Below are positions 3,893-52,535 of a DNA stretch of 54,897 bases, one piece after another; within the stretch, counting starts at the first letter, position 1; each line of letters opens with the position of its first letter. The position numbers were made by a program, and so were the translations under genes. A model generated the notes under the pieces. That model searched no databases. It worked only from the letters and a program-made list of their open reading frames with translations, and was not told where the DNA came from. The DNA comes from a virus (Duplodnaviria > Caudoviricetes), in the IMG/VR virus record IMGVR_UViG_3300009505_000017, positions 1-54,897 of that record; one strand, given 5' to 3'.

Positions 3893-4269
3893 AAGATTCT
3901 ATGACAATTCTTTGGCAAGAGGTTAAGGATAATAGGAAATCTGTTTGTCTTAATACAAGCAGAGAAGAAGCCTACATATATAGAGGTGTTAAGTTTTCAA
4001 AGTTAGATGGAGTAACAAGAATATATAACACCACTAAAGTTGGACTTAGTTACAGAGAAGTAACTAAAGATGAGTATGATTTCTTAATTGAAAATGGATT
4101 AAAGATTGGGGTTAAAAACATTCTCCAGAACACCTATAGAGGTCAGATAGAAAGTATAAATGAAAAGATACATGGAGAAGTCAATACTCGTAACAACAAG
4201 AAGCATTATGAGTCATTGAAACAAAAAAGAGAAACATTAATAAATAAATACAGTAAACTAAACAATTAA
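3886..4269 (+). CDS. Hypothetical protein
   Basis: 127-aa ORF in operon. Confidence 0.8.
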   Translation: MLEDSMTILWQEVKDNRKSVCLNTSREEAYIYRGVKFSKLDGVTRIYNTTKVGLSYREVTKDEYDFLIENGLKIGVKNILQNTYRGQIESINEKIHGEVNTRNNKKHYESLKQKRETLINKYSKLNN

Positions 4270-13627: not shown

Positions 13628-16600
13628 TCAGAAGTCTAAATTTTTAAGTTCATCTTCTAGTTTTTTTATTTTTCTACCAGCAGGCGAATTTTTCTGTTGT
13701 TTTCTAGCTTTAGATTTTCTAGCTTTTCTTTTTTTAAGTTCTCTTTCTCCATAGATTATTTTAAAATCTTCATCACTTAATTTTAAATCTTGCTGTTTAG
13801 AAGCTTTTATGTCAGACCAATTCTGAGCCATCATATATCTTCTTATATCCTTGTATAGTGGTAATGGTACTCCTGTAAACTGACTAGCCTCTAAAGCAGT
13901 TCTTAATGTCATAAACTCAGCTGCTGCTCTGTCGGCAACTTTTTTATCTTTGCTTCCCATTTTAGCAAGTAAATCACCCATTCTTAATAAACTACTAGCT
14001 TGTGGAGCTAAAGGCCCTGCACCAATTCTTATTGCCGACTCAGCTACACCTTCTTTCTCTAATTTTTGTTGGTTTATTACACTAAATATAATAGAATGTA
14101 TATATGGATTATATCCTTTGCCATCTTTGTCTGACCATAAACCTAAATCTTCTCCATATTCCTCGTTTAATTTTTCAATAGCTAAATTTATTGGAATCAT
14201 AGGAAAGTTTCCTGAAGTACCTCTTGTTATTAAAGAAACTCCTGCACCTGCTAATTGTCTAGTGGTTAACTCTTCATAATCTATGTCATCTTTATCATCA
14301 AGTCCTAACACTCCATTGAACATAGAAGCTAGTGCTTTGTACATAACAACGTACAAACTCATTCTAGTCATGATTCCTGCTAATGTAGCACCTCCTTTTA
14401 TAGCACCCATTTCTCCTTGTCCAACCATAGAAGCAACAGCTTGTCTTGCTGTTACAAATTCATTGATAGTAAACCGAGCCATATAGGAGTTTATTGACTT
14501 ATATAATATCATTCTAGCACCATCTTGATCTGAGAGTTGATTTTTCAACACGCCACTAAAGGGGTCATTAGATGTTGCCGCTTGAGTAACTTTAGCATCA
14601 GCTGCTCTCTTGGCAGCTTGAATAGCATCTGCATACTTAGTCATGTATGCTTCGTCATTTTTTGATATTTTATCTGCGTCCATGTCTTGACCAGTTTCCT
14701 GTTTAAAAACCTTAGCAAAAGTTCCAAAAAATAAAGGTCTTGAAATCATTTTATCAGGAGTACTTAATAAATTATCTGCCAAAAACTCTGAACCATCTGC
14801 AAACTTTTTACCAAATCGAGCTGCGTATTGAAAAGTACTTTTAACATTACTACCACTAGCTCGTTTACTTCCTTTTTTGTTTCTAACTACACCAGCGTTT
14901 TCTGATTTAGAACCTCCTAGTATTTCTGAACCCCAATTTTTAGTTACAGTTGTAGACCCTACATTTTCTGCAAAAGACAATCCGTTTTGCATTAAAGATA
15001 ATTTTGAATATTTTCCTAACCCTAATGCTAATTCTTTAGGAGCTGACATCAATCCAAATGTCAAGTTACTTCCAAGTTCTGCCACAGCTCTTGGAGCAGA
15101 TGCTAGCGTACTATAATAACCAATTTTTCTTGCTGAATCAAACCACTTTCCTCCTATAACGTCTGTACTAAAATTACTAGACAAAACCTTATTAATAGAT
15201 TCATCATATGCTCTTGACAAAGAAACAGTTGCTTCTATTACTTCTTTTGTAGCATTGTCTTGTTCAGAAAGTTTAGTTAATTGAGTTAAAGCTTTTCTAG
15301 ATGTTTGTATTTCATTAGTTAAATAGTAATCCATACCTGCCATTCTTAAAGCTCTTAGTGCTGTAGCTACAGGATCAAAATCAATTGCCTTTGCTCCTGG
15401 AGTTCTACTTATAGATGTTTTAGATTCAGTACTTGTTTGTGGATTTATGTAGTTTTTCTGTGATATTAATTGTTGGTCTAATTTGTCAGTTGTAGCATCA
15501 ACTTTGTGATGAACATAATTGTTCAATAAGTCTAATTTATTACCTCTTACAATAGTTGTCGCATAGGCTTGCTTGTCGCCTAAAGCACCATAAATTTCCT
15601 GCATTATACCTATCGCCTTCATTACTTGTGGAGATAAATTTTGTTTCATCTTCTTAGTTGTAATGACTCCTCCTTCGCTATTCTTTGCTTTTATATCGAG
15701 TAATATATCTATGTCAGCTTGAGTATAATTGCTTTTTGTTTTAGAATTGTTAAAGTTTTCTACAGTCTTGTCTATAAATTTATTTGCTTCTGCAACTCCT
15801 TTATTACCTGCGTTTGATTCGCTTTCTAAAGCTAGTAAGTATGTTTGTATTTCAAACCTTCTTCTTACTGCAGGATTAGTTCCTTCTTTGTAAGTAGGAG
15901 CTATTATCTGTTCTACAGCATCAAGCTTATCTGTTAGTCTTCCTGACCAAGTTTTAAACTGACTGTACTTTGTGGCTATTGGTTCAAAACTATTATTTCT
16001 TATAGTGTTGTTTTTATAGTTTCCAAAAGCATTATCTACTGCAGATAAAGGATTAGTCCTTAGCATCTCTAATGATGTTGTGGAATTTGCTCCCCTTTTT
16101 GTGGCGTTTTTTAAACCAGCTTTTAAAGCAGCTTCGGCCCTGCTTTTGACCATAGCTATTTTATTTTTAGTAGTTCCATATTTGTCTACTAAAGGACGCA
16201 TGTCATAAGCCCTACTATTTATTGACTGACCAAGTTTGTTTGCAGCGTGTGTATAATGACCATTATTAATGTTTTCAAGACTAACTTCTAATAAATCTAA
16301 TTGCTTACCTGTTAAGCCAATTAGGTCGCTGTCTTTAATGTTTTGAAACACTTGAACACCACCTGCTTCTTTAGTTGTGTTGTCAAGGCTTTTTAAACTT
16401 ATACCCTTAGACCTAGATTTTATTTTTGTTATAATGGCCTGTCTATTCTCAGCAAATTTATTAGCAGCTTCTACAAGCTCTTGATTTTCATCAGTCTCTG
16501 CTGAGTTAATTTTATCTATAAGAGTTTGTAATGTAAATGAATCTAGTTTATCTAAGTCGTTTTCAATAAACTTAGAATCTTCTGATATTAAAGTTTCACC

Positions 16601-19600
16601 ATCTACATCTTCATTAATAATTTTATCTACTATAGTTTTTAAAGTTTTAGTTTCTTTAGTTTCAGTCTCTTCATCTGTATCTTGAATGTTTTCATTATAC
16701 AAAGAATCAGCCATGTTTTGAGAATCTATTATTAACTGATTATCTAACTTTACATTTTGTTTTTGCTTTAGAAGATTACTTAAGAAATCATTATAACCAT
16801 CTATGTTTTCACTAGTAAGATTTTTAGTTGGAGTATTTAGTATAGTTCCTAACCTAGATATAAGGTCTGGATTTAATCCATAGTCTCCTTTATTTAATCT
16901 TGTGGTCACTCTATTATTAAGCTTCTCTGCTTTCAAAAGTTTTGCTGCGTAATCAGCGTCATTAAATACTTTTTCTGAATACTCTATTAATTCTTGTACA
17001 GCCACTTGATTATCAAGATTAACACTATTAACTTTGTTTATAACAGCTTTTGTTTGTGCTGCAGTAATAGTTCCCTTTTTACCTTTAGAATATATCTTTA
17101 TCTGTTTATTAAGGTCTTTTCTTTTGGTTTTTAAATCTTGTTTACCTTCTCTGTTGGCCTTGTTCCACGCTTTCCAAAATCTTTTACGCTGAGTATTTTC
17201 TCCTTCTTGCTTTGCCTTATCAGTTCTAGTGGTACTCTTTATAGATTGTAAAATACCTTTATATGTATCAGCCGTTACAGTTTGACTATTTGTTTTAGCA
17301 ATGGCTTCTACCTCAGCCTGTACTTCTGCTTCATTTGCAGCATATAAATCTATCTGCTCATTTGAAAAGTTAGTCTCTCCTTTCGCTATTTTAGTAGCTA
17401 ATCTTTTTGTTTTAGATTTATCCTTAGGAACATTTTTTCTTTTCTGTGTAACTAACGCATCGATCTCTGCTTGATTCTCAGCATAAAACTGTTGAGCTTC
17501 ATCACCAAACTCTTGAGTAGATTCACCATCTACTAATCTATTAGCAAATGATTCAACCTTATTATCATTGTTCACACTCACACCTTTCTTTGCTGAGGAA
17601 GGTTGAGTAGATGTCTGATTAGTTTTAGCTGCGTCATTTGATGCAATCTTTTCTGCATAAGCTTTAGCTTCTTTAGAAGTTTTAAAGCTTTTAGTTAAAG
17701 CATTGCTTCTAGTCATTTGACCACCTTGATTTGTATTAACTCTTACCTCAAATCTATAATCAGTATTTTTTCTGGCAGAAGGTTGACCTTGGTCGTTTTG
17801 AGCCGAAATATTAACCTCTACTTTATCAGAAGAATAGTTTTCATATCTACCTGCTGAGTCAGGGGAATTTGGTTTTAAGAGTTCAACATCTGTCTCCGTA
17901 GTCGTGTCGATAGTTGTATCGGTTTGCGTGTCACCTTCTTCGACTTTCGTTTCGGTATCTGTCTCAACGTCTCCTTCTCCCACTTGCTGCAGTTCCACTT
18001 CGGAGTCTGCCCCATCTGTTTGGCTTCCTCCATCATCTTGTAACACTTGTTTCTCTGTGCTTGGTTTTTGAATGGCATCGTTTTCTTTTTTAGTTTCGCT
18101 TTCCTTATCTTTTTCTAATGCAGCTTCATTAGCTGTTTCAACAGGAAAAGCTAAGGCTTGCTTTTCTTCCATTGATAACTTATTAAAGTTTTGTACAGCT
18201 CTACTTCTAATTTCGCTGTTATTTATTTTATAGTTTTGTTCACCTGCAGCTTCTTTTTCAGCAACTAACTCTTTGCCTGCATCATCCATTAGTTTTTGTT
18301 TTGATTTGTTATTTACAAAATCAAAGTTGCTGTTTTTAATTATGTTGTTTTTTAAATCCTGAATCTGAACATCAAGATAAGGTGAGAAAACTTCAGATAC
18401 TTTTTTCTCTGATTCTAATTGCTTAATTTTATTTAAGTCACTCATCACCTGTAAAGATGTTTCAGCACTTAAATTTGATGGTAAACCATTAATGGTTTCA
18501 TTAAATATTTTAACATCACTCATTAAGTTATCAGCTTGCTGTTGCGTATAAATACCTCTCTTTACTTGTGAATCTAAAAGTGATTGTGTTTTTTTTACAT
18601 TACTAGCTAATAAAGCTAAAGATTTCATTTGATCAATAGCTCTACCACCTCGTCCAGTCATACTAAAAGACCTAGTTGTATTTGCTTTTAAATCTCCTGC
18701 AACAGGCATTAAGATACCTGCGCTTAAAGATATTATGGAGGTGTTAGCAAAGTCATCTAAACTAATAGTCTCCTTCATTATTTGTTCACCTGCTTGTTCG
18801 TTTATGTCTGAACCAATAATATAAGCTTGTGCGCCTTGTTGAATGTTTTCTTGAAAAAATTCTTTTCCACCTTCAGTTAAATATACAGGAACATTTCTTA
18901 TAACTCCATCTAATGTTTTTCGTAAATAAGACCTAGACGCTTCAATCCCTGCTCCTTGCGCATATCTGTTAATTGTATTCTCAACAATTTTTTGTTTTAC
19001 TTTTGTTCCAAATATCTTATCCATAGCAACACGCTGTGTAGATATTGGGGCTGTTAAAACACCTAGTGCATATCCCTGAGTCGCTGCTTCAGAAGCTAAT
19101 AAATTTGCTTCTTCGTTTGATAAACCTGCATCTAGAGCTGACTTTCTAACTTGTGACGCTAATGAGCTACTCATTAAAGTACCCTGAGCAATCATAGCTG
19201 AAGCTGTTGAAGCTCTCATAGGTACTTTTTCTAACAAAGAAACAACTTGTCTACCTTGCTTGTATTTAGATGCAAATGCAATTCCTTTTACAGTTTGACC
19301 TGCCATTCCAACACCCCTAGTAAGAGCTATCTGAAGTAGCATATCTGAAGCCACACCTGCAGTTGTTACTGTTGCTCCTGTGCCACTAAAACTACTTACA
19401 TCAACTCCATTTAACTGAACTTGTTTTCTTATTTCTTTTATTTGTTCTGGCTCTAATACGCTGCTTACTCTTATCTTTAAATCTAAATCATATATTTCTC
19501 CGTTGTCATCAATCATATACTCTCTACCATTTGCAAAAGCGCTTTTACCACTTGCATAGGTATATCTAAGCATATCATCTCTGTTAAGTTCTGTTTCAGC

Positions 19601-21412
19601 TTGATTCATTTGAATTTCATCAATAACAGATTCCATGCCTACCCAATCATAAGCCCACTCAGAAAAACTATTTATCCTATCATTTACAGAACGACCCCCT
19701 TGAGATCCTGCATCGAGTAACCATTGAGTATTTGAACCACCTGCACCACCTTCTAATTCTTTTTGATAATTTTCTTTTGTTTCGGCTTTTTGTTTTTTTA
19801 CTGCAAATGACAAAGTAGGAAATTCTTCTTCCATATAATCCCTAAGCTCATCTATTGCAATAGCAGGTTTTAAATCTATTTTATCTACATCACCATTTAA
19901 AAAAGGATTCTTGCCTTCATTCTTAATTTCGTATTCAAGAACTTGTTTGTTTACATTTTGCAAATCAACTTCAGCTAAATAGTTTTTTAGGTAATCATAC
20001 TTTAATTTCTCAGCTGCCAAAGTTGGATTATAGTTTCCAGAATAGTCGTAATATCTTCCATCTTCAGATATTGTTTCGTTTTCTAGCAACTTAGCGTATC
20101 TTTCTTTAAATCCGTTTTCTATTAAATAGCCATTAAATCCAGATATGTCAATTTTATTACCATCACCTGATAGCTTTTTTAAAGTTTGCTGGTCATACAT
20201 TTCTCCTAAAACATCATCTTCAAAACCTGTTGGTTCAAAATCTGAGTTTTCAAAAATCTCAAACTCTTCATCAGTATAAGCTCCATCTTCTCTTTGAAAT
20301 ATAGACTGAAGTTTTTCAACGCTAGCATTAGGGCCTGCCAAATCTATAAGCCTTGCCGTTTCTGCATCAAAGTCTTTAACTTTTTTAATTATAGCATTTC
20401 TTTTTTCTTTTTCTTCAGGAGTGTAACTAAAGTTTTTTACATCAGAATATTGAGAATATTCTTTTTGTTTTTCTTCTTGCAGTTTTAATGCATTGTCTTT
20501 AATTGACTTTACAGAAACTTCTTGTAGTTTTTCAATAGATTTTTTATTTCCTTTTAATGCAGAGTTTATATCTGATTGCTTTACATATCCTATAGCTAAT
20601 GCTTTTTGAATATTAGGATCAGCTTCTATTTTTAATTTTAATTGTTCATCTATAGGTAAATCTAAAAACTCACCTTTAGTTTCAATAGCTCTGTCTGTTT
20701 TTGTGAATGTTATACTTCCCTGTCCTCTTTCTCGATTGGGATTTGTTGCTTTTTCAAACAAAGAACTAAGGTCATCTTTTAATAGATTTTTGTTTTTTCT
20801 AGAATCATATCTTTCTTTCCATGAACCTTCACCATAGGCAATTGCAGATTGTTTATCTGTTCCAAAATCAGCAACCTCTCCTCTTTTTTTAGCTTCTTCG
20901 TAAACAGATTTCCAATCTGATTCTGCTTGCTCAGACATGTCAACAAATTCTCCGTCTTCATTTTGAAATACTGTAGGGAAAGAAAACCAATTTTCTCCAT
21001 CAAAAGTTTCGGTTTTCATTTTGTGCGTAGATACACTTCCATCGTCATTTAATTGAACACCTTTTCTATTTGGTGCGTCAATATTTATATTGAATTCTTC
21101 CTCAACTTCTACTTCTAAACCATCCGAAAATCCAGGAGTTGTTTCCGTCTCTGTAGTGGATTCCGTAACGACCTCGTTTGAAGTGGAAGGAGTATCGACT
21201 TGATTTTTTTTTTCAGAAGTAGCTATTCCAACATTTGTTCTCCAAGTTTCAATGTCGCTTTTTGTATACTTCTTATCTGTAAGATAAACATGCACATTGT
21301 CTTGTATTTCTTTACTACCTGAAAAATTTGATTTCCAAGTTTCAAAATCACTTTTGGTTGCGCCATCATTAGTTAGCGTGTTCCATATGTTTTTAAGAAT
21401 TTCTTCGTCCAT
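13628..21412 (-). CDS. Giant (2594 aa) internal virion / DNA-ejection protein
   Basis: Very long, mainly helical ORF last in the structural operon, after two other internal-protein-like genes; no RNA polymerase catalytic motif seen. Confidence 0.7.
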   Translation of the reverse strand: MDEEILKNIWNTLTNDGATKSDFETWKSNFSGSKEIQDNVHVYLTDKKYTKSDIETWRTNVGIATSEKKNQVDTPSTSNEVVTESTTETETTPGFSDGLEVEVEEEFNINIDAPNRKGVQLNDDGSVSTHKMKTETFDGENWFSFPTVFQNEDGEFVDMSEQAESDWKSVYEEAKKRGEVADFGTDKQSAIAYGEGSWKERYDSRKNKNLLKDDLSSLFEKATNPNRERGQGSITFTKTDRAIETKGEFLDLPIDEQLKLKIEADPNIQKALAIGYVKQSDINSALKGNKKSIEKLQEVSVKSIKDNALKLQEEKQKEYSQYSDVKNFSYTPEEKEKRNAIIKKVKDFDAETARLIDLAGPNASVEKLQSIFQREDGAYTDEEFEIFENSDFEPTGFEDDVLGEMYDQQTLKKLSGDGNKIDISGFNGYLIENGFKERYAKLLENETISEDGRYYDYSGNYNPTLAAEKLKYDYLKNYLAEVDLQNVNKQVLEYEIKNEGKNPFLNGDVDKIDLKPAIAIDELRDYMEEEFPTLSFAVKKQKAETKENYQKELEGGAGGSNTQWLLDAGSQGGRSVNDRINSFSEWAYDWVGMESVIDEIQMNQAETELNRDDMLRYTYASGKSAFANGREYMIDDNGEIYDLDLKIRVSSVLEPEQIKEIRKQVQLNGVDVSSFSGTGATVTTAGVASDMLLQIALTRGVGMAGQTVKGIAFASKYKQGRQVVSLLEKVPMRASTASAMIAQGTLMSSSLASQVRKSALDAGLSNEEANLLASEAATQGYALGVLTAPISTQRVAMDKIFGTKVKQKIVENTINRYAQGAGIEASRSYLRKTLDGVIRNVPVYLTEGGKEFFQENIQQGAQAYIIGSDINEQAGEQIMKETISLDDFANTSIISLSAGILMPVAGDLKANTTRSFSMTGRGGRAIDQMKSLALLASNVKKTQSLLDSQVKRGIYTQQQADNLMSDVKIFNETINGLPSNLSAETSLQVMSDLNKIKQLESEKKVSEVFSPYLDVQIQDLKNNIIKNSNFDFVNNKSKQKLMDDAGKELVAEKEAAGEQNYKINNSEIRSRAVQNFNKLSMEEKQALAFPVETANEAALEKDKESETKKENDAIQKPSTEKQVLQDDGGSQTDGADSEVELQQVGEGDVETDTETKVEEGDTQTDTTIDTTTETDVELLKPNSPDSAGRYENYSSDKVEVNISAQNDQGQPSARKNTDYRFEVRVNTNQGGQMTRSNALTKSFKTSKEAKAYAEKIASNDAAKTNQTSTQPSSAKKGVSVNNDNKVESFANRLVDGESTQEFGDEAQQFYAENQAEIDALVTQKRKNVPKDKSKTKRLATKIAKGETNFSNEQIDLYAANEAEVQAEVEAIAKTNSQTVTADTYKGILQSIKSTTRTDKAKQEGENTQRKRFWKAWNKANREGKQDLKTKRKDLNKQIKIYSKGKKGTITAAQTKAVINKVNSVNLDNQVAVQELIEYSEKVFNDADYAAKLLKAEKLNNRVTTRLNKGDYGLNPDLISRLGTILNTPTKNLTSENIDGYNDFLSNLLKQKQNVKLDNQLIIDSQNMADSLYNENIQDTDEETETKETKTLKTIVDKIINEDVDGETLISEDSKFIENDLDKLDSFTLQTLIDKINSAETDENQELVEAANKFAENRQAIITKIKSRSKGISLKSLDNTTKEAGGVQVFQNIKDSDLIGLTGKQLDLLEVSLENINNGHYTHAANKLGQSINSRAYDMRPLVDKYGTTKNKIAMVKSRAEAALKAGLKNATKRGANSTTSLEMLRTNPLSAVDNAFGNYKNNTIRNNSFEPIATKYSQFKTWSGRLTDKLDAVEQIIAPTYKEGTNPAVRRRFEIQTYLLALESESNAGNKGVAEANKFIDKTVENFNNSKTKSNYTQADIDILLDIKAKNSEGGVITTKKMKQNLSPQVMKAIGIMQEIYGALGDKQAYATTIVRGNKLDLLNNYVHHKVDATTDKLDQQLISQKNYINPQTSTESKTSISRTPGAKAIDFDPVATALRALRMAGMDYYLTNEIQTSRKALTQLTKLSEQDNATKEVIEATVSLSRAYDESINKVLSSNFSTDVIGGKWFDSARKIGYYSTLASAPRAVAELGSNLTFGLMSAPKELALGLGKYSKLSLMQNGLSFAENVGSTTVTKNWGSEILGGSKSENAGVVRNKKGSKRASGSNVKSTFQYAARFGKKFADGSEFLADNLLSTPDKMISRPLFFGTFAKVFKQETGQDMDADKISKNDEAYMTKYADAIQAAKRAADAKVTQAATSNDPFSGVLKNQLSDQDGARMILYKSINSYMARFTINEFVTARQAVASMVGQGEMGAIKGGATLAGIMTRMSLYVVMYKALASMFNGVLGLDDKDDIDYEELTTRQLAGAGVSLITRGTSGNFPMIPINLAIEKLNEEYGEDLGLWSDKDGKGYNPYIHSIIFSVINQQKLEKEGVAESAIRIGAGPLAPQASSLLRMGDLLAKMGSKDKKVADRAAAEFMTLRTALEASQFTGVPLPLYKDIRRYMMAQNWSDIKASKQQDLKLSDEDFKIIYGERELKKRKARKSKARKQQKNSPAGRKIKKLEDELKNLDF
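17875..18078 (-). CDS. Putative nested (+1 frame) small basic protein of MPFKxxAQR type
   Basis: MPFKNQAQRNKCY...KWNCSKWEKET; A-rich leader (aaaaaagaaaacgATG); host frame here is a low-complexity linker. Confidence 0.55.
   Translation of the reverse strand: MPFKNQAQRNKCYKMMEEAKQMGQTPKWNCSKWEKETLRQIPKRKSKKVTRKPIQLSTRLRRQMLNS
21204..21213 (-). other. A10 slippery run; candidate -1 frameshift or transcriptional slippage site
   Basis: GAA AAA AAA AAT at codons 67-70; the -1 frame has TGA just before the run and stays open to TGA at 21104-21102. Confidence 0.45.
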
Positions 21413-36104: not shown

Positions 36105-37199
36105 TTATTTTTTACTTCTAATTTTCAATCCTCTACCACTTGAGTCTGAAACTTGACGAGCCTTAAAGCCTGTATCTCCAATCGCTTGAGGAGCTTGCCT
36201 AGTCGACATGTTAATGTTTTTACTTTTTTTAGAAACATCACTTATCGCATCTGCTTTCCCTTGGTCATAAAAATAACTAGCAAACTTTTGAGGATTCATT
36301 GCAGCACTTAAAGCTGTATGCCATCCCTTTGCATCACTTATTAAACCATCTTCACCAACATACCTGCCGACTAGATTATTTAAATCACTTTGCTTTGTCT
36401 TCATTTCAGTAACATCACCATAAGAATAATTTACAATTTTATCTCCAACATTAAACTCAAAACCTTTGAATTCTGGATTAAAAACTTCATTTGTCTTTTT
36501 TACAAAAAAATCATTTTTCTTTGCATTGGCTTCTTCAGCTGATTTAGAATTTTTAATATAACTTCTATATGCTTCAACTTCTCTCTCCTGTTCTTCAGAA
36601 AAAGAACTCCCACTTGACTCAAGAGGAACTCTGTATTTTTCTTTTAAATCGTTAAGATATGTTTTAGCTTTTGAAAGTTCTCTTTTTTTAGCAATGTTCT
36701 TTTTCTTTATTTCTTTTTCATCATCAATGTCTTCATCATATGAAAACTTTTCATCCATTAAATAATGAATGTCTTCACTATCTAAATCAGATTCAGTTAA
36801 AGAATAGTACTCTGCTAACACTTGTTCGTCATCTAAATCATCGTATTGTTTATTTACTTTTACGAAATCTTCAAAACCACGCCCTGTGTTCTTTTTATAA
36901 TCTAAATATTTAGACACCTCTTCTGGCAAATCATTTGTCTCTTCTCTTTGAGCAAACAAATCATCAACAGATGAAATATCTTTATTATATCTATTTTTAA
37001 TATATGAAAGAACGTCTTCGTCTTTTATAGTTGGACTTTCAACTGCCAATTCTTCGGCTTCTTGTTCTAAAGGTTGCTCTTCAACAACATCATTAGGTTT
37101 ATCGTTAAACTCAGCTTCATGCTTTTGTAATAACTTCTCTTCTACTTCCTGTACAGATTTTTCCGCTACAGAATCTAGTGATTTTACTTTAATTTCCAT
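36105..37199 (-). CDS. Capsid scaffolding protein
   Basis: Acidic, helical, basic extreme C-terminus; between portal and capsid. Confidence 0.7.
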   Translation of the reverse strand: MEIKVKSLDSVAEKSVQEVEEKLLQKHEAEFNDKPNDVVEEQPLEQEAEELAVESPTIKDEDVLSYIKNRYNKDISSVDDLFAQREETNDLPEEVSKYLDYKKNTGRGFEDFVKVNKQYDDLDDEQVLAEYYSLTESDLDSEDIHYLMDEKFSYDEDIDDEKEIKKKNIAKKRELSKAKTYLNDLKEKYRVPLESSGSSFSEEQEREVEAYRSYIKNSKSAEEANAKKNDFFVKKTNEVFNPEFKGFEFNVGDKIVNYSYGDVTEMKTKQSDLNNLVGRYVGEDGLISDAKGWHTALSAAMNPQKFASYFYDQGKADAISDVSKKSKNINMSTRQAPQAIGDTGFKARQVSDSSGRGLKIRSKK

Positions 37200-37251: not shown

Positions 37252-39687
37252 TTATCTAGGTTCAAATTCAGCTAAATCAAAACCATCTAAACTATCTTCA
37301 TTTGATTCAAAACTTACAGGAGCTAAGTTGTTTTTTCTTTGCTCTATTAATTTTGATTGCTCTGTGTTAGCTTGACTTATTCTTTTAGACTTAGCTTCTT
37401 CACGTTGATTTTCTCTCATTTTCAACCCCTCAATTTCAACACCTTTTAATTTCATTTGTAACTGAAACTCTAGTTGCATTAACTCAGCTTTTATAGCAGC
37501 CTCTCCCTTCATTTTTTCTATTGAAAAAGTTGCTTTTCCTTTCTCAATTTCCATAGAAGCTTGAGTTTCCATTTGTAATTTTTGCATTGCTGTTTGAGCT
37601 GCTAGTTGTTGTGACTGCATATTTATCTGACCTTGTTGTTGGGCAGCAGCAGCTTTTGCTTGTTTTTCAGAGTCTTCTTTTGCTTTACGCCTAACCTTAA
37701 GCATCTGATTAGCAAGTTTAACATTTCTTATTTCTCTAATGTCAATTGCATCTTCTAAGTTTATACTATCCCTGCTTAAAGCGGTTTGTATATTTTGCTC
37801 TAAAAGTTTTTGTTGCTCTTCATCTGGAGCTACTTCTATGAAGATGCCAAAATCACTTAAATATAATTCAGATATTTCTTCTAAAATTCCAACATTATAC
37901 TTACCTACCTGATTAATAAATTCTTCTCTAAAATCTGCATACTCTAACAAATCAGCTACTCTACTAGATAATGCTGTACAAAGCCTTTCTGTCATTGCTA
38001 TTCCAGAGTCTAATATGTGTCTAGTTGCAGTATTACTGCTTAAAGCTGCTAGTTTTTGAAGACCGACTAAAGAATAAGAATCTGGTGTTGCTCCATCTCT
38101 AGCTTCATTTAAACCTGTTACATCTCTAAGCATAGACATATAATGATTATACGTACCTACAAGACTTTGTATTTTTCCTTGCCCTGAACTACTGTTCAAT
38201 TGTTGGATAGGTACTTTTGCTTGATTATAATCTCCGTCTTGAGTATAACTTCTACCAATAACACTTCCTGTTTGGAAAAACATTCTAAGTGCATCTTCTG
38301 GATTGTATGCTTGACCTGTTCCTAAATCTACTTCACTTAATCCATCAGCATCTATGTAAACACCATCTGGTACAACTCTTGAAATAACTTGTTGTAATTT
38401 TAAATGGGTCATTTGAATTAGATCAGCAAATGTAATCATTCTTCGTACTAAAGATTCTAAAACTCCTTTATACATTCTTGGAGCAGCAGCTAAAAACTCT
38501 GGATACACTTCTTGTGATGCAGAAGCTGGTCTAGCCATGTTCTCAGCCATCTCCCATTTAAGCATAATACTTGTACCCATAATCATAACTCCCTCATACC
38601 AAACATCAATTGTTTTAGATACTTTTTCATAATTACCTTCATCTTGCATTTCTGGAGTTGGATTAAAGCTGTCATCTTTTTCAATAACTTTTGAAGCTCC
38701 TGATGAATTTGTTTTTTTCTTATAAGTAAATGTATGGGTTGTTTTATAATTAAAGAATAAAACAGTGGCACTGTCTTTACTGAATAAACTATTATTGTAA
38801 TACTGTGCTGTATTATTGTAATCATACCAACTTTGACTATATTTTGATATTTCTTCCATATCAACCCTAGTTAAACTTGTGTCAATTTTAAGCAATTCAC
38901 TTATTGGTAAAGTTTTAATTTCACCCCAATAAAAACAATCTTTAAAATAAGGGTCTTCTGTATAACTATAAACTACATTTGCAGGATCAACATATTCAAC
39001 TTCAATTCCTGAACCAGGTTTAAAACTATGTTTGCACATTTGAATACCTAAGACCATTTGGTCATAGTAAAGTCTTTTTTGCAAATCATGGTATCTGCTT
39101 TCAGCTAAAACGGTATTTATTGCTTCTTCCTCTGCAATTTCAATAGATGGCTTGTATTTTAATTGCATATGCAAAGCAAGCTGCTCATCGTTTTCAGGAA
39201 CTTCTTCAGCACTCATTCGAAAAGTATTGACATCAAAATCTTTTTGAACTTGCTTCATTAGATCTTTAGAGATCATATCTTTTTCTAGTTGTCTTTGATA
39301 TTTACTTTTTTTATCAAGAGACATACCATCCTGGGCATAAGCGTTAATTTTAAATACTCTGTCAGCCATTCCATTAACAACTATGTCCACAAACTTTGGT
39401 ATAATTGGGACAGGAGTCCAGTCTAAATTTAAATAACTTAAATCCCCATCAATTGCTAATTCATTTTTATATTTAGCTATTGACTGCTCTCCACGAGCAT
39501 ATAATCGAAGTCTATGAAAGTCAGCCCATTGATTATAAAACCTACTTTGTCCTCCGTCTTTTCTGAACCACTCATATTGAATGGCTTGTCCTATTTGCAA
39601 CCCAAACTCAACGCTGTCTTTTTCTTTGTCAGACACGAATTGACTTGGGAAACCCTGAGGGTTTATTGCTATTTTTACATCCTCCAT
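37252..39687 (-). CDS. Portal protein
   Basis: 811 aa adjacent to terL; PIIPKFVDIVVNG, RDVTGLNEARDG, long C-terminal Q/A-rich coiled coil like a podovirus portal barrel. Confidence 0.85.
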   Translation of the reverse strand: MEDVKIAINPQGFPSQFVSDKEKDSVEFGLQIGQAIQYEWFRKDGGQSRFYNQWADFHRLRLYARGEQSIAKYKNELAIDGDLSYLNLDWTPVPIIPKFVDIVVNGMADRVFKINAYAQDGMSLDKKSKYQRQLEKDMISKDLMKQVQKDFDVNTFRMSAEEVPENDEQLALHMQLKYKPSIEIAEEEAINTVLAESRYHDLQKRLYYDQMVLGIQMCKHSFKPGSGIEVEYVDPANVVYSYTEDPYFKDCFYWGEIKTLPISELLKIDTSLTRVDMEEISKYSQSWYDYNNTAQYYNNSLFSKDSATVLFFNYKTTHTFTYKKKTNSSGASKVIEKDDSFNPTPEMQDEGNYEKVSKTIDVWYEGVMIMGTSIMLKWEMAENMARPASASQEVYPEFLAAAPRMYKGVLESLVRRMITFADLIQMTHLKLQQVISRVVPDGVYIDADGLSEVDLGTGQAYNPEDALRMFFQTGSVIGRSYTQDGDYNQAKVPIQQLNSSSGQGKIQSLVGTYNHYMSMLRDVTGLNEARDGATPDSYSLVGLQKLAALSSNTATRHILDSGIAMTERLCTALSSRVADLLEYADFREEFINQVGKYNVGILEEISELYLSDFGIFIEVAPDEEQQKLLEQNIQTALSRDSINLEDAIDIREIRNVKLANQMLKVRRKAKEDSEKQAKAAAAQQQGQINMQSQQLAAQTAMQKLQMETQASMEIEKGKATFSIEKMKGEAAIKAELMQLEFQLQMKLKGVEIEGLKMRENQREEAKSKRISQANTEQSKLIEQRKNNLAPVSFESNEDSLDGFDLAEFEPR

Positions 39688-49007: not shown

Positions 49008-49163
49008 TTATTTGTTATAAGGGAAATTTCTGTTTAAACTGTCTTTTCTTTTAGAACAGCCACAAGATTTTCCTGTTACTTTTTCATATACTTTAGCTAC
49101 TTTGTCTGCTCCAACTGCTTTAGCTACTTTTTCTACAGTGTCTCCGAATCCTTTTGATTTCAT
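49008..49163 (-). CDS. Small basic protein with CGC motif (51 aa; not in track)
   Basis: MKSKGFGDTVEKVAKAVG..SCGCSKRKDSLNRNFPYNK. Confidence 0.75.
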   Translation of the reverse strand: MKSKGFGDTVEKVAKAVGADKVAKVYEKVTGKSCGCSKRKDSLNRNFPYNK

Positions 49164-49321
49164 TTTACGTCTTCTTTTTTATGAGAACAAGAACAAAATT
49201 TATAAGAACATTCTTGAATTTCTTTAAAACTTATAGATTTTAACAAATTGTTCCAACTGCATTGAAATTTGCACCAAACTTTTTGTATCCATAAACCTAA
49301 TTTTATAAAAGCTTTACCCAT
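49160..49321 (-). CDS. Small Cys-rich protein (53 aa; not in track)
   Basis: MGKAFIKLGLWIQKVWCKFQCSWN..CSYKFCSC; ATGA-coupled. Confidence 0.65.
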   Translation of the reverse strand: MGKAFIKLGLWIQKVWCKFQCSWNNLLKSISFKEIQECSYKFCSCSHKKEDVK

Positions 49322-49323
49322 TT

Positions 49324-49524
49324 TTATTTTTTCTTGTTTTTAAGTATTTTATCAATAGCTACATTCTTTATGTTGATAGTATCATAAGAAGGTACATTTG
49401 TCAAATTTGGATGAGTATTACTTTTTTGATACTTAGCCAAACCCTTATCAATTTTTTCTTGAAAATTTTTTTTACCCTTTAAACATTTTTTTAATGCATC
49501 TCCGATTAATCCTTTACAACTCAT
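49324..49524 (-). CDS. Small basic protein
   Basis: 66 aa, Lys-rich, N-terminal Cx11C; -7 element TATATTTG upstream at 49550-49543. Confidence 0.7.
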   Translation of the reverse strand: MSCKGLIGDALKKCLKGKKNFQEKIDKGLAKYQKSNTHPNLTNVPSYDTINIKNVAIDKILKNKKK

Positions 49525-49550
49525 AACTTAAAATTTATTCTACAAATATA

Positions 49551-49841
49551 CTAATATTTTCCTTGTCTAGTTTTAGGACTAGACTTTGTTGAACCACCCT
49601 TCCCAGCCCATAGGTTTTTACACGCCCAGTATCTTGCAGTTAACTTTGATTTTGCTGTTCCACATTTATGACGTGCCTTGAAGCTCTTTCGTGCAGCTGC
49701 TGAATAATTATGTCCATATCCTTTTGCTCCAAAGTGAATAAGCTTTTCTTTTCCTGACTCACAACCTTTAACCATTTTCTTTTTACCTGCTCTATCAGAA
49801 GCAGTAGGCTTATTGCAAGCCATCTTTTTCTTATCTGCCAT
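49551..49841 (-). CDS. Small basic conserved phage protein
   Basis: MADKKKMACNKP..IHFGAKGY..RKSFKARHKC..TARYWACKNLW; start moved from 49907 because another ORF occupies that space. Confidence 0.8.
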   Translation of the reverse strand: MADKKKMACNKPTASDRAGKKKMVKGCESGKEKLIHFGAKGYGHNYSAAARKSFKARHKCGTAKSKLTARYWACKNLWAGKGGSTKSSPKTRQGKY

Positions 49842-49845
49842 TTCA

Positions 49846-49971
49846 TTATTTCTTACCGCACTTTGAATATGCACTATTTTTAATAGTTTTTTCAGAAGGT
49901 AATCCATTTTTTTCAGGATTAACTCCGCTTTTCTTTGCTGCTGTAAAATAAGGTTTTAATGATTTTTTCAT
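49846..49971 (-). CDS. Small basic protein (41 aa; not in track)
   Basis: MKKSLKPYFTAAKKSGVNPEKNGLPSEKTIKNSAYSKCGKK; TAATG-coupled to the upstream gene. Confidence 0.6.
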   Translation of the reverse strand: MKKSLKPYFTAAKKSGVNPEKNGLPSEKTIKNSAYSKCGKK

Positions 49972-50219
49972 TATTTAGTATATTTTTTAGTTACTTTTGC
50001 TTTTTTTGTATTTGACACAAACTGCTTTTTACCGCCTGACGCCTTCTTTTTTCTTGCTGTCTTAGCCCTTTCTGCTTTACTTAAACTCTTAGCCTTAGCC
50101 AAAGGCAGACACCTGTCTGGGTTTTTCTTGTTCTTGCTAGTACCGCATGCGCCCATTATAGACCCATCTGTACCTATGCGAACCCACTTCTCATTTCTCC
50201 ATTTAGCAAGCTCACCCAT
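49971..50219 (-). CDS. Small basic conserved phage protein
   Basis: LAKWRNEKWV..CG..RCLP..AKSLSKAER..TARKK. Confidence 0.8.
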   Translation of the reverse strand: MGELAKWRNEKWVRIGTDGSIMGACGTSKNKKNPDRCLPLAKAKSLSKAERAKTARKKKASGGKKQFVSNTKKAKVTKKYTK

Positions 50220-50374
50220 TATTTCTTTTTTCCTTTACCGTAGTTAGGATCTTTACAATACTTACTAGCAGCCATATTAGCATAGGCAGAAGGATATTTG
50301 TCAAAAGTTTTTTTTGCCCAAGATATTCCTGCTGCACAAATTTTATTACCTTTTTTCTTAACCTTCTTTGCCAT
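50219..50374 (-). CDS. Small basic protein with YPSAYAN motif (51 aa; not in track)
   Basis: MAKKVKKKGNKICAAGISWAKKTFDKYPSAYANMAASKYCKDPNYGKGKKK; TAATG-coupled. Confidence 0.75.
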   Translation of the reverse strand: MAKKVKKKGNKICAAGISWAKKTFDKYPSAYANMAASKYCKDPNYGKGKKK

Positions 50375-50376
50375 TA

Positions 50377-51114
50377 TTATAAGTTTATTTCAAAAACTAA
50401 ATACAACTCCATTTCTGCATCATCTGTTCCTATCGCTCCGTTTTCTACTCCACTAATATTTATAATTTCTCCTGCTGCTAGACTTACATTTCCGTCCCAT
50501 TTTTTAGTTGGGAAAGTGCCAGTATCAGAAGCTGTTAAAGATAAAGTAGGTAATGCCGCTTTAAATTGATAACTAGACGTCTGTGTTGTAGAAAGTGCAG
50601 TGTTTGTCATAGAATAAACATTTACATCCCATGTACTATTTGCTAATGGAATATCAACAGGTGTTGCATGTATCCATTTCATTTGAGCCTTTATAAGCTT
50701 ACCATCAAATGGCATTTGAAATACAGAACTATTTGACGCTACAGGCGAAGCTGATGCTGCAAACTCTAATGTATCTCCAAATATTCCAGGGGACCCACCA
50801 AATAAATTCTTCCAAATTCCAACTACAGACAATAAAGCTCCTTGCGATCTTGATATATTAACCTCACTACCAGTCCCTTGACTTATTAAAATACCTGCCT
50901 CCCCAATTAAAACAACATTGTCAGATGTAGAATCACTTCCAGTTAAGGTAATAGTAAATTCATTGGTATCAGTTTCTGTTCCTGATAAATCATATTTAGT
51001 TCCAACTAAGTTAGGGTCTATCTTTATGTTGTCTAATCCATCGTATCCAACTAAAGCCTCTACTTGAGCTTGATTTGTTCTTAATTCAAATTGTGAAAAT
51101 TTTAAATTTGCCAT
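50377..51114 (-). CDS. Virion surface/fibre-like protein
   Basis: MANLKFSQF anchor-like N-terminus; C-terminal beta domain similar to an internal domain of the tail fibre. Confidence 0.65.
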   Translation of the reverse strand: MANLKFSQFELRTNQAQVEALVGYDGLDNIKIDPNLVGTKYDLSGTETDTNEFTITLTGSDSTSDNVVLIGEAGILISQGTGSEVNISRSQGALLSVVGIWKNLFGGSPGIFGDTLEFAASASPVASNSSVFQMPFDGKLIKAQMKWIHATPVDIPLANSTWDVNVYSMTNTALSTTQTSSYQFKAALPTLSLTASDTGTFPTKKWDGNVSLAAGEIINISGVENGAIGTDDAEMELYLVFEINL

Positions 51115-51131
51115 TGTTTTTTTTTTATATA

Positions 51132-51290
51132 TTATTCGCAGAGTTCTGGTATCATTCTACTATCTTCGATTACTGTTTCTTGTTCACAGAACTCATCAAG
51201 CTCCGTTATTATAAAGCATAGTTCTGGTATGTCTTCATTTCTTTTGTCTTGAAATGGTATGCCATTTCCTATTGCTGATCCTAATCCCAT
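51132..51290 (-). CDS. Small acidic protein (52 aa; not in track)
   Basis: MGLGSAIGNGIPFQDK..IPELC..IPELCE; TAATG-coupled. Confidence 0.65.
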   Translation of the reverse strand: MGLGSAIGNGIPFQDKRNEDIPELCFIITELDEFCEQETVIEDSRMIPELCE

Positions 51291-51484
51291 TATACTTTCT
51301 TCTTTAACGCTGGAGGCGTTGGGTTTAATGATTCTCGTTTTGCTTTTTGATAAGAAAGCATTTCAAAATTTTTATTATTAAAATTACTTTCAGATCTTTC
51401 TTTAGCCACATGTGTTTTTAGTAGCTTATTAGCTTCTTCACATTTAGCTCTTTTTTTTGTATCTTTTATTGATTCGCAACCCAT
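51290..51484 (-). CDS. Small basic protein
   Basis: 64 aa, N-terminal Cx11C like the 49324-49524 protein. Confidence 0.7.
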   Translation of the reverse strand: MGCESIKDTKKRAKCEEANKLLKTHVAKERSESNFNNKNFEMLSYQKAKRESLNPTPPALKKKV

Positions 51485-51502
51485 AATTTTATTTTTTAGT
51501 TT

Positions 51503-51814
51503 TTATTTACCTCCAGTATTACCTTTGTTTCTTCTTCCTGCTCCTTTTTTACCTCTCGCTCTTCTGTCTCCTGCTGTATTACTTTTACTTCCTCTATTCT
51601 TAGAGGCCTTTTCTAATACAACTTTACCGTTTTTATGGGACACATCTAGTCCATCGTAGTTCCCATATGTTCCAAATTGACGATTTTTTCTATTATCATC
51701 AACTCTTTGCTTAATAGACTTACGTTTTTTGTTGTATTTAGCCTGATATTTACGATGTTTCTTACGTGCTTCAGGGTTATCTCTATAAAATTTAGCAGTT
51801 CTGCTTAATGCCAT
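51503..51814 (-). CDS. Very basic protein with degenerate HNH-like motif
   Basis: Arg/Lys-rich; DGLDVSHKNG..ASKNR; start at MALSRT. Confidence 0.65.
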   Translation of the reverse strand: MALSRTAKFYRDNPEARKKHRKYQAKYNKKRKSIKQRVDDNRKNRQFGTYGNYDGLDVSHKNGKVVLEKASKNRGSKSNTAGDRRARGKKGAGRRNKGNTGGK

Positions 51815-51825
51815 AATAAAAAAGT

Positions 51826-51841
51826 TATCTTTGCAAAGATA
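51826..51841. promoter_or_regulatory. Palindromic pair of opposed -7 promoter elements TATCTTTG|CAAAGATA
   Basis: Perfect 16-bp palindrome made of two TAnnTTTG elements between divergent genes. Confidence 0.75.
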
Positions 51842-51854
51842 CAAATTTAATCTA

Positions 51855-52283
51855 ATGAAATTTTCGCCACAAAACGACTACCTGAAATACTGGAAAGTTG
51901 TAAGACAATGGGCTAGGTCCAAATATAACCTCTCTACATCTGAAATAGAGATGATGCTATTCTTATATAGCGAAGGATACTTTACAAGAAAACAATTTGA
52001 AGAGTATAATGAAATAATGTCCTGGGACAAAAGGAGATTTGAAAACTTGCTAAGAGAAAAATGGATAATCGTATGGAGAAAACGAAAAGGCAGGGAGTCT
52101 ACTTTATATGAACTTGGATTTAGTGGGAAGCGCTTATGCGCTTCGATTTATAAAAAGCTAAATAAAAAAGAAATGGTGTCAGAACACGAAAGAACTAACC
52201 CCATTTTTAATTTAGATGCTGATTATAGCAAAAAAGTATACAGAAAGATTATAAAAAAAATGAATAAAGAAATGAAACTATAG
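51855..52283 (+). CDS. Winged-helix (MarR-like) DNA-binding protein
   Basis: YNLSTSEIEMMLFLY..RFENLLREKWI..LYELGFSGKRL; the only + strand gene in the right arm. Confidence 0.6.
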   Translation: MKFSPQNDYLKYWKVVRQWARSKYNLSTSEIEMMLFLYSEGYFTRKQFEEYNEIMSWDKRRFENLLREKWIIVWRKRKGRESTLYELGFSGKRLCASIYKKLNKKEMVSEHERTNPIFNLDADYSKKVYRKIIKKMNKEMKL

Positions 52284-52535
52284 CACTACAACTATATCTC
52301 TTTCAGATATTATAGTTACTACCTCATCTTCTAACATCATCTTGTGACCTGCATTCTTATCGTAATAAATGAAGTCACCTTCATTTACAACATAAACATC
52401 AGTCCCTGGAATCTTTATCAAACCTTTTTTGTATCTTAGCTGGTTGCTATCGTCTGACGTTAGTAATATTCCTGACTGTGTTTTTTGTTCTGATTGAACT
52501 TCTGTAATAACAATGTACTTACCTACTGCTTTCAT
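52278..52535 (-). CDS. groES: Co-chaperonin GroES
   Basis: KTQSGILL mobile loop, VNEGDFIYY, IISERDIVVVL; directly downstream of groEL. Confidence 0.88.
   Translation of the reverse strand: MKAVGKYIVITEVQSEQKTQSGILLTSDDSNQLRYKKGLIKIPGTDVYVVNEGDFIYYDKNAGHKMMLEDEVVTIISERDIVVVL

Follow-up and report, generated by a model that had tools for sequence, protein, structure and literature searches.

A putative small gene of the MPF family nested in the +1 frame of a giant virion gene in a marine Flavobacteriia phage

Comparative sequence analysis indicates that nucleotides 17875–18078 (minus strand) of the window, by which we mean the whole 54,897-nucleotide stretch of phage DNA analysed, are very likely a true protein-coding gene that annotation has missed. 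It is contained entirely within a giant virion gene, in the +1 frame of the latter, and encodes a 67-aa protein of the MPF family. The source virus is a marine Flavobacteriia phage. The features discussed are as follows.

13628–21412, minus strand: giant virion protein gene, 2594 aa, with a PHROG match in the C-terminal third only (phrog_32588)
17875–18078, minus strand: nested MPF-family ORF, 67 codons plus TAA, ATG at 18078, in the +1 frame of the giant gene
17875–18091, no strand assigned: dual-coding conservation island ('cassette'), GC- and CpG-rich, kept between phages with non-homologous giant-gene flanks
18079–18098, minus strand: putative Shine-Dalgarno-independent (Bacteroidia-type) initiation region of the nested ORF, an A-rich, unstructured leader
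36105–37199, minus strand: 364-aa scaffold-position protein (phrog_16786), between the portal (37252–39687) and a 472-aa virion structural protein

Position, composition and start of the nested frame

The ORF begins at offset 3334 of the giant gene, which places it in phase +1, and its basic product opens with MPFK; the translation equals that quoted in the original prediction, which had called the ORF and its phase correctly. Further features are C12, W28, C30, W33, the pair E36-T37 and an IP/LP motif, and the C-terminal part carries a Lys/Arg-rich tail together with a conserved TRLRRQ helix. Across the same nucleotides the host frame encodes DAIQKPSTEKQVLQDDGGSQTDGADSEVELQQVGEGDVETDTETKVEEGDTQTDTT..., which is acidic and of low complexity and corresponds to about residues 1112–1180 of the giant protein, in agreement with the acidic linker that had been proposed; the giant protein as a whole has no Pfam match. 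The segment had also been described as richer in CG-containing codons than its surroundings, and its GC content is indeed 46.6%, compared to 30.3% and 34.8% in the 600-nt flanks, with a CpG value of 0.049 compared to 0.008–0.010. Contigs from RNA libraries match 17881–18091 and diverge past both ends; start, strand and level are not readable from them, stretches that they leave uncovered carry no meaning, and they may derive from DNA. The plus strand is likewise open across the region, in two ORFs of 55 and 59 aa.

Immediately upstream lies the predicted A-rich leader (gaaactaaaaaagaaaacgATG), whose DNA doubles as K, E and N codons of the giant protein. The A content at -20 to -1 is 63% in 53 distinct leaders compared to 38% at 4155 control +1-frame ATGs, and A reaches frequencies of 0.83, 0.91, 0.85 and 0.94 at positions -3, -6, -12 and -13, respectively. 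These four positions, all occupied by A in the window leader, are those at which A is a positive determinant of initiation in F. johnsoniae (Bacteroidia), and the start region (-35 to +35) is unstructured, with a minimum free energy of -0.3 kcal/mol. Hosts of the Bacteroidota initiate without Shine-Dalgarno sequences, thus internal starts may be easier. We infer that initiation of this type probably occurs internally on the late structural mRNA, at the nested ATG with its A-rich unstructured leader, to yield the MPF protein. The Bacteroidetes-type -7 motif TAnnTTTG has no minus-strand site at 18079–20338, approximately 2.2 kb upstream, and is not enriched in the window overall (91 found, 82 expected).

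The length of the nested ORF was considered as evidence in itself and rejected, since a +1-frame ATG ORF of at least 67 codons appears in 23.5% of 1000 synonymously resampled giant genes; the giant gene itself has a further open +1 run of 78 codons near its 5' end (nt 397). With the host residues of the segment held fixed, the +1 frame was open over 67 codons in 3.6% of 20000 resamplings. As the length lies within chance expectation, the significance of the ORF rests on conservation and homology.

Selection and conservation in the overlap

The nested frame has a pN/pS of 0.31 in a set of 25 distinct long-form sequences, where the host and third frames have 1.43 and 1.19, respectively, although several of the sets were ascertained with nested-frame patterns and pN is therefore biased downwards at those codons. 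The minimum numbers of changes at nested codon positions 1, 2 and 3 are 44, 31 and 66. The least biased data are codons 42–69 of this set and 106 host-ascertained pairs spanning 85–99.9% identity. In these pairs, which like all pairwise counts are phylogenetically non-independent, 56, 26 and 18% of differences within the overlap fall at host codon positions 1, 2 and 3, compared to 19, 11 and 69% in the C-domain and 29, 18 and 53% upstream of the overlap. The phase of the substitution periodicity switches solely within the overlap, where host third positions become the least variable, a pattern replicated in three subtypes. For the giant gene overall pN is 0.055 and pS 0.193; inside the overlap they are 0.18 and 0.23. 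As read from these substitution patterns, selection is shown to target the nested frame and not the host-protein sequence of this segment.

Nine relatives of the giant gene were located by patterns outside the cassette. In seven of these the nested ORF is intact, with identical start, stop and +1 phase, while the two closest relatives (L001 and L002, with a giant protein 96% identical) have lost the N-terminal ~25 codons and contain an in-frame TGA. The expectation of an open +1 frame in homologous giant genes therefore held for the seven and failed for these two. No further MPF copy was found in the L001 and L002 records, which are 71% and 38% complete, and their loss of the gene implies that it is dispensable or replaceable. 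One other nested ORF (L023) has a stop at codon 33. In L008–L010 the giant-gene flanks are unrelated to those of the window on both sides and the nested protein is 85% identical; L008 and L009 also hold a second copy, at the site orthologous to that of the window, which has decayed to MPFQSQAQRSKLL* with the host frame still open, and the intact nested copy lies 675 nt downstream of it. Indels in the nested frame comprise whole codons, and the subtypes retain a protein-like pattern despite DNA divergence.

The arrangement extends beyond the giant gene. Among the 80 cassette-ascertained loci kept from 99 relatives, a longer ORF contains the MPF ORF in its +1 frame in 79, and one copy (L090) is free-standing; a profile of free-standing proteins located 26 loci, 24 nested and two free-standing. 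Nested copies have one of two hosts, the giant gene or a scaffold-position gene of ~400 aa. When 80 loci were chosen solely on the C-terminal domain that the ~400-aa gene encodes, a +1-frame MPF ORF was present in 65, a decayed copy in one and none in 13, and in the one remaining locus (L246) the MPF domain is in frame and forms the N-terminus of the scaffold-position protein. The window's own 364-aa protein is a homologue of this ~400-aa host (tblastn, 36–38% identity) and its gene lacks the cassette, which was found within the scaffold-position gene in none of 80 close relatives; PHROGs holds no family for three of the ~400-aa host proteins. On this distribution, one cassette is shown to occupy two unrelated host genes, giant and scaffold-position, in related Flavobacteriia phages. 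A majority of the related viral contigs examined, of marine and freshwater origin, carry the nested ORF, and a blastn search for distant matches to the surrounding 3 kb among phage records returned none.

The MPF family

The nested protein is, by homology, a member of a large, unnamed, virus-wide family of small proteins that we refer to as MPF. In an exhaustive search of 1.84 billion proteins, a profile built from eight nested ORFs matched 113 at E ≤ 1e-3, the best of them at 3.5e-11; a word-indexed profile search returned no match. Giant-virus proteins are among the 113, and in 100 of them the match begins at the protein's own residue 1, aligned to query position 1–2. One subtype of the family (W-type) comprises 544 called small proteins. 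The original prediction had put forward MPFKS as a recurrent start of stand-alone phage proteins and proposed an HMM search for homologues; such a family is real and the search was productive. The start and open frame whose loss in close relatives it had named as telling against the gene are absent from the two closest relatives, as described above, and the stand-alone homologues whose absence would have told the same way exist.

M1, P2, F3, Q8, C12, W28 and C30 vary little or not at all across 58 sequences, within the pattern M-P-F-x-S-x-x-Q-R-x-x-C-[WY]...P-x-W-[DN]-C-x-x-W-E-K-E-T...LP followed by a Lys/Arg tail. The window protein fits this core (Q8, C12, Y13, W28, N29, C30, W33, E36, T37, I41-P42 and KRKSKK). 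With free-standing MPF proteins of phages and giant viruses it shares the Met1 start, M1/P2/F3/Q8/C12/W28/C30/W33, the ET...LP arrangement and the basic tail, and differs in an extra 25-aa C-terminal extension containing the conserved TRLRRQ helix. Whereas the window copy lies inside a giant ORF, other MPF genes are either free-standing or joined in frame to PBCV_basic_adap, DUF5771 or DUF5661, and MPF forms the N-terminal module of some longer viral (NCLDV-like) proteins.

An HMM of 23 free-standing proteins (called library genes of unchecked genomic context, themselves picked with the nested profile), run on 963 six-frame pieces of the window, scored the nested ORF at 69.5 bits (E 1.4e-20), with the next best piece at E 0.52. 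The original prediction had placed the nested gene in one class with a cluster of small genes at 49–52 kb. This did not hold: the family profile matches the nested ORF alone in the 54,897-base record (E 4.8e-24), with the free-standing-protein HMM every other piece has E of at least 0.52 and those at 49–52 kb at least 2.5, and the ORFs there, small and basic yet without homology to the nested ORF, were rejected as paralogues.

Neither Pfam nor PHROGs holds a family for the nested ORF or for the MPF domain of its relatives, and searches of Pfam, PHROGs, PDB and named homologues yielded no function for the MPF protein. Weak matches to Choline_sulf_C, which at 15.5 bits fall short of the cut-off of 27, were put down to chance. 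The small viral and bacterial proteins of DUF3008 likewise start MP.KSK.Q and finish with an LP-basic motif. An ESM Atlas cluster annotated as DUF3008 lies close by (score 0.83, with the family in 37% of cluster members). In hmmscan there was no match to the DUF3008 model (PF11450) at E ≤ 1 in the window ORF, five other nested forms or ten free-standing relatives, nor at E ≤ 10 in the free-standing copy of L090. PF08789 (PBCV basic adaptor) matches the C-terminal tail only, in some free-standing relatives (for example P0014, 26.2 bits); the window protein has no Pfam match, PF08789 included.

The AF2 model of the nested protein (pLDDT 82.3) predicts helices at residues 6–22, 30–37 and 58–66. 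Its best fold matches in BFVD are giant-virus proteins (Terrestrivirus, Harvfovirus), with probability 0.99 but E of 0.055–0.068; sequence and fold searches of the PDB found no homologue, and the best Foldseek match, Erv1 at E 9.3, was judged not meaningful. A complex prediction with the window's scaffold-position protein scored 0.00, which, as it was run without controls, is evidence neither way. A tentative guess, which we hold to be possible though rather less than even, is that the protein folds as a helical hairpin, secured by C12 and C30 and followed by a basic tail; it would be expressed at the same time as the structural proteins and might act in virion assembly or be packaged together with the DNA.

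Alternative explanations and the age of the two frames

The open frame could be an untranslated by-product, the selected element being an acidic host motif (DAIQKPSTE..VL...EVELQ.VG.G) that would serve in capsid targeting or as a protease or binding site. This motif is present wherever the cassette occurs, and where a segment is acidic and poor in T its composition alone would keep the +1 frame open, as the 78-codon run at nt 397 and the frequency with which resampled genes reach 67 codons illustrate; the two plus-strand ORFs are open at the same region as well. However, the host frame within the overlap evolves like the third frame rather than like the nested one, its third positions are least variable there and nowhere else, and the nested frame aligns with free-standing proteins from Met1; furthermore, where the nested frame has decayed (L008:6218 and L215) the host frame stays open while its motif drifts. 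We therefore consider this explanation very unlikely.

It is also improbable, if a little less strikingly so, that MPF is translated but joined to the host protein by frameshifting or slippage, for example by -1 slippage in A-runs, with which many short forms finish (as KKKK). Either MPF-scaffold fusions or a giant protein cut short and ending in MPF would result. The in-frame MPF domain of L246 and the longer viral proteins with MPF as N-terminal module are compatible with such fusions, but L246 is a single case in 80 and possibly an assembly indel, and the long form in the window finishes ...RLRRQMLNS* without an A-run. The conservation of the ATG and of its Bacteroidia-type leader also argues for independent initiation, as do stops in the nested frame six codons upstream of the ATG in L008–L010. 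Sharp boundaries, high GC and CpG and differing flanks might instead suggest a nucleic-acid element, such as a recombination hotspot, regulatory RNA or packaging signal, in which nested coding is incidental. We regard this as extremely improbable given that the three-base periodicity of variation is in phase with the nested frame, that indels are of whole codons and the protein-like pattern outlasts DNA divergence between subtypes, and that the start region is unstructured.

If 17875–18078 is, as we favour, a translated nested gene, the relative age of the two frames becomes of interest. The MPF frame looks older because free-standing relatives of it occur in other phages and in giant viruses, and the host-frame segment looks younger because it evolves like an unconstrained frame; the acidic linker is thus probably the younger frame, and would have been laid over the MPF gene. 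The original prediction spoke of an overprinted gene, of which the overlap stands while the direction is probably the reverse. A bolder and, in our estimation, doubtful extension is that the cassette is a mobile dual-coding module, an ancient virus-wide gene moving among the disordered acidic linkers of different structural genes, such as the scaffold-position gene and that of the giant internal protein. It would survive in linkers because its -1 reading makes a harmless acidic spacer, its placement would tie MPF synthesis to that of virion proteins, and it would be the large proteins that were overprinted, onto a small gene that preceded them, in the opposite direction to classical overprinting; in some lineages slippage or in-frame fusion might then turn the MPF domain into an adaptor for virion targeting or assembly.

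The textbook case of a phage gene wholly inside another in the +1 frame is lambda Rz1, embedded in the spanin gene Rz. As there, a complete small ORF lies within a larger gene on the same strand, is kept across many phages, is presumably expressed together with its host from one late mRNA, and is under purifying selection in the nested frame. The differences are that Rz is a lysis gene whereas MPF has a virion or scaffold-position gene as its host, that Rz1 is a lipoprotein whereas the MPF product is predicted to be a soluble basic helical protein, and that the MPF gene is nested in two unrelated hosts and its frame looks older than the host segment. Classical viral overprinting, reviewed in PMC8227390, is the birth of a de novo gene inside an older one. 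The present case is similar in that one DNA encodes two proteins, one basic and one acidic and disordered, under asymmetric constraint. It differs in that the small nested frame is old by phylogenetic spread, and the segment of the large gene is unconstrained and probably newer, which suggests that burial of an older gene beneath a younger reading frame is possible.

For tailed dsDNA phages that infect Bacteroidota, the locus offers a clear, testable case of a gene nested out of frame, and it links the virion-morphogenesis module to an uncharacterised small-protein family that phages share with giant viruses. Experiments are feasible because elemoviruses are in culture together with their Flavobacterium host. 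A full-text literature search, with supplementary small-gene catalogues outside its scope, found no paper describing the nested gene. Gene callers miss it: the ORF is unannotated in all 69 GenBank records that bear it, namely 68 Elemovirus genomes and MW202828, where the annotation at the locus is the giant 'structural protein' CDS only.

The nested frame and its genome setting

The nested ORF, whose family we call MPF, begins at nucleotide offset 3334 of the giant virion gene and thus lies in its +1 phase.

18078–18076 (ATG) to 17877–17875 (TAA), minus strand: nested MPF ORF, translated as MPFKNQAQRNKCYKMMEEAKQMGQTPKWNCSKWEKETLRQIPKRKSKKVTRKPIQLSTRLRRQMLNS
13628–21412, minus strand: giant host gene, 2594 codons

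All features noted in the original prediction were reproduced, namely the ORF and its frame, an acidic, low-complexity host-frame reading (DAIQKPSTEKQVLQDDGGSQTDGADSEVELQQVGEGDVETDTE...), the A-rich leader (gaaactaaaaaagaaaacgATG) and the CG-rich segment, with 46.6% GC compared to 30–35% in the flanks and CpG of 0.049 compared to about 0.01. Length as sole proof of a gene was rejected as unremarkable, since, when the entire giant gene was resampled synonymously 1000 times, 23.5% of the resulting sequences contained a +1-frame ATG ORF of at least 67 codons; the real gene also has a second long +1 run. With the host residues of this segment fixed, the +1 frame was open throughout in just 3.6% of 20000 resamplings; the segment is also open in two plus-strand ORFs. 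The second run (78 codons, with a 74-aa TTG ORF; 20779–21003, minus strand) lies in the N-terminal acidic region of the giant gene and does not match the MPF profile.

The record (54,897 bases, 91% complete by CheckV estimate) encodes on the minus strand, in order, the large terminase, portal, a 364-aa scaffold-position protein, a 472-aa virion structural protein and, after other genes, among them one for a 1524-aa structural protein, the giant gene. Judging from portal sequences, the phage very probably infects a member of the Flavobacteriia, since the 86 organism-named portal relatives (phage records) all come from phages of Flavobacterium (68), Cellulophaga (15), Tenacibaculum (2) and Maribacter (1). 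Adjoining genes for a putative GroES-like co-chaperonin (85 aa, 52278–52535) and GroEL-like chaperonin (523 aa, 52547–54118), both minus-strand, were assigned by eye from their translations.

Homologues and distribution

The stand-alone homologues anticipated by the original prediction were found. A profile of eight nested ORFs matched 113 proteins among 1.84 billion representatives at E ≤ 1e-3 (best 3.5e-11), most of them 44–130 aa, and 100 of the 113 matches begin at the protein's own residue 1. Conversely, among the window's 963 six-frame pieces, an HMM of 23 free-standing proteins singled out the nested ORF at E 1.4e-20 (runner-up 0.52). MPF also serves as an N-terminal module in longer proteins, some with NCLDV-type C-terminal domains (PBCV_basic_adap, DUF5771 or DUF5661); such fusions were seen in giant-virus contigs (locus L173, a GVMAG contig, and proteins P0014, P0024 and P0083), linking the small-protein repertoires of phages and NCLDV. 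No family covering the domain was found in Pfam, PHROG or PDB, and the 544 called small proteins of the W-type subtype are all unnamed and lack Pfam matches. The nested product is confidently predicted to be helical (AF2 model, pLDDT 82.3; helices 6–22, 30–37 and 58–66); the top fold matches of the model are uncharacterised Terrestrivirus and Harvfovirus proteins, and a PDB fold search returned nothing. The proposed kinship with the small Lys/Cys-rich basic ORFs at 49–52 kb (51–118 aa; 49008–51844, minus strand) was not borne out, since the record holds exactly one MPF copy; these ORFs are non-homologous to it.

Nested genes are already known in phages; this one is widespread, unannotated and testable. 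From 99 relatives that the nested protein retrieved in IMG/VR, 80 were retained; 79 of these hits are nested in +1 phase within a longer ORF, and the sole free-standing copy (L090) sits between terminase and portal. The free-standing-protein profile found 26 loci, 24 nested and two free-standing, one of the latter in a giant-virus MAG contig. Among cultured or GenBank phages, 68 Elemovirus records and MW202828 carry the ORF, always in +1 phase under a giant 'structural protein' CDS and never annotated. Host genes are of two kinds, giant genes of 2000–3100 codons and a gene of about 400 codons, the latter homologous (36–38% identity) to the scaffold-position gene of the window (36105–37199), which itself lacks the cassette, as do its 80 closest relatives.

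Peptide patterns outside the cassette identified 10 loci with relatives of the giant protein, nine covering the region. The open +1 frame expected in relatives was intact in seven of nine, with the same MPF start, stop and phase, but in the closest two (L001 and L002, 96% identical) the first ~25 nested codons are gone and an in-frame stop is present; no other MPF copy was found in these records (71% and 38% complete). A host-ascertained set of 80 loci, found solely via the C-terminal domain of the ~400-aa gene, contained a +1-frame MPF ORF in 65, in four sequence subtypes, a decayed one in L215 and none in 13. In the remaining locus, L246, the MPF domain is in frame and forms the N-terminus of the scaffold-position protein (1273–2313, 347 aa), and the 60 codons that normally encode the N-terminus are found upstream in a different frame; this arrangement reflects either a genuine fusion or an assembly error of 1 nt. 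The nested ORFs of L199–L278, in the N-terminal part of the scaffold-position gene, include at least four subtypes (Cys-type, W-type with MPFKSEKQRRWLWxNKPEIALKWTNKY, YLF-type and HKR-type), and many end in A-runs encoding KKKK, possible slippery sequences.

Selection and origin of the cassette

pN/pS by frame among 25 distinct long-form sequences
Nested frame, all codons: 0.31
Nested frame, codons 1–40: 0.22
Nested frame, codons 42–69: 0.45
Host frame: 1.43
Third frame: 1.19

Differences by host codon position 1/2/3 in host-ascertained loci (106 phylogenetically non-independent pairs, 85–99.9% C-domain identity)
Overlap: 56%/26%/18%
C-terminal domain: 19%/11%/69%
Host N-terminal part upstream of overlap: 29%/18%/53%

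Minimum changes at nested codon positions 1/2/3 numbered 44/31/66 in the long-form sequences. Over its full length the giant gene has pN 0.055 and pS 0.193, with pN rising to 0.18 inside the overlap; separately, a stretch of ~200 codons downstream of the cassette is hypervariable (pN about 0.3–0.5 among close relatives). In the host-ascertained pairs, the least biased test, the position profiles indicate that coding periodicity flips into the nested phase within the overlap only, which was replicated in three subtypes, themselves defined by nested-frame patterns.

The original prediction of a real overprinted gene is largely right as to an overlapping gene with stand-alone homologues, but probably misjudged which frame was overprinted. 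Free-standing relatives of the MPF frame extend well outside this phage group, and the host segment behaves in its evolution like a frame without constraint; the small gene is therefore probably the older reading, across which the big proteins read.

The cassette seems to be moved or swapped as one block, judging from its two unrelated host genes, varying positions within giant genes, GC above its flanks and a decayed remnant. In L008–L010 the giant protein is unrelated to that of the window on both sides of the cassette while the nested protein is 85% identical, thus the conserved island is coextensive with the ORF. The remnant (MPFQSQAQRSKLL*), a decayed second copy that retains its A-rich leader, occurs at L008:6218–6259 and the equivalent L009 site, a position orthologous to the window's cassette site; 675 nt further downstream, between different flanking sequences, is the intact copy. 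In each of the complete records G003 and G004 there is a single MPF copy.

Proposed translation and possible role

Across 53 distinct leaders, A makes up 63% of the 20 nt preceding the nested ATG. The corresponding value is 55% at 29 gene starts of the window and 38% at 4155 further ATGs taken from the +1 frame of the host genes that carry these leaders; only 1.8% of those 4155 reach the nested median. A occurs at position -3 with a frequency of 0.83, at -6 with 0.91, at -12 with 0.85 and at -13 with 0.94; PMC6847099 reports that these four positions stimulate initiation in F. johnsoniae, a species in which ribosomes disregard Shine-Dalgarno sequences. The region from -35 to +35 is unstructured (MFE -0.3 kcal/mol). 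No Bacteroidetes-type -7 box was found just upstream, suggesting that ribosomes would initiate internally on the mRNA of the giant gene to translate the ORF.

It is conceivable, as a rather doubtful guess, that the product acts in virion assembly or is packaged and DNA-associated, based on its constant placement in the morphogenesis module, the one in-frame scaffold-position fusion, its basic tail and the N-terminal use of the module on diverse viral proteins.

Metatranscriptome-library contigs from two studies span 17881–18091 and 17958–18204 at ~94–95% identity in different flanks, showing presence in RNA libraries and again a mosaic island, rather than demonstrating translation. In contigs from RNA libraries X17 and X18, 300 bases just past the nested stop (17580–17881) are replaced by 33 other letters.
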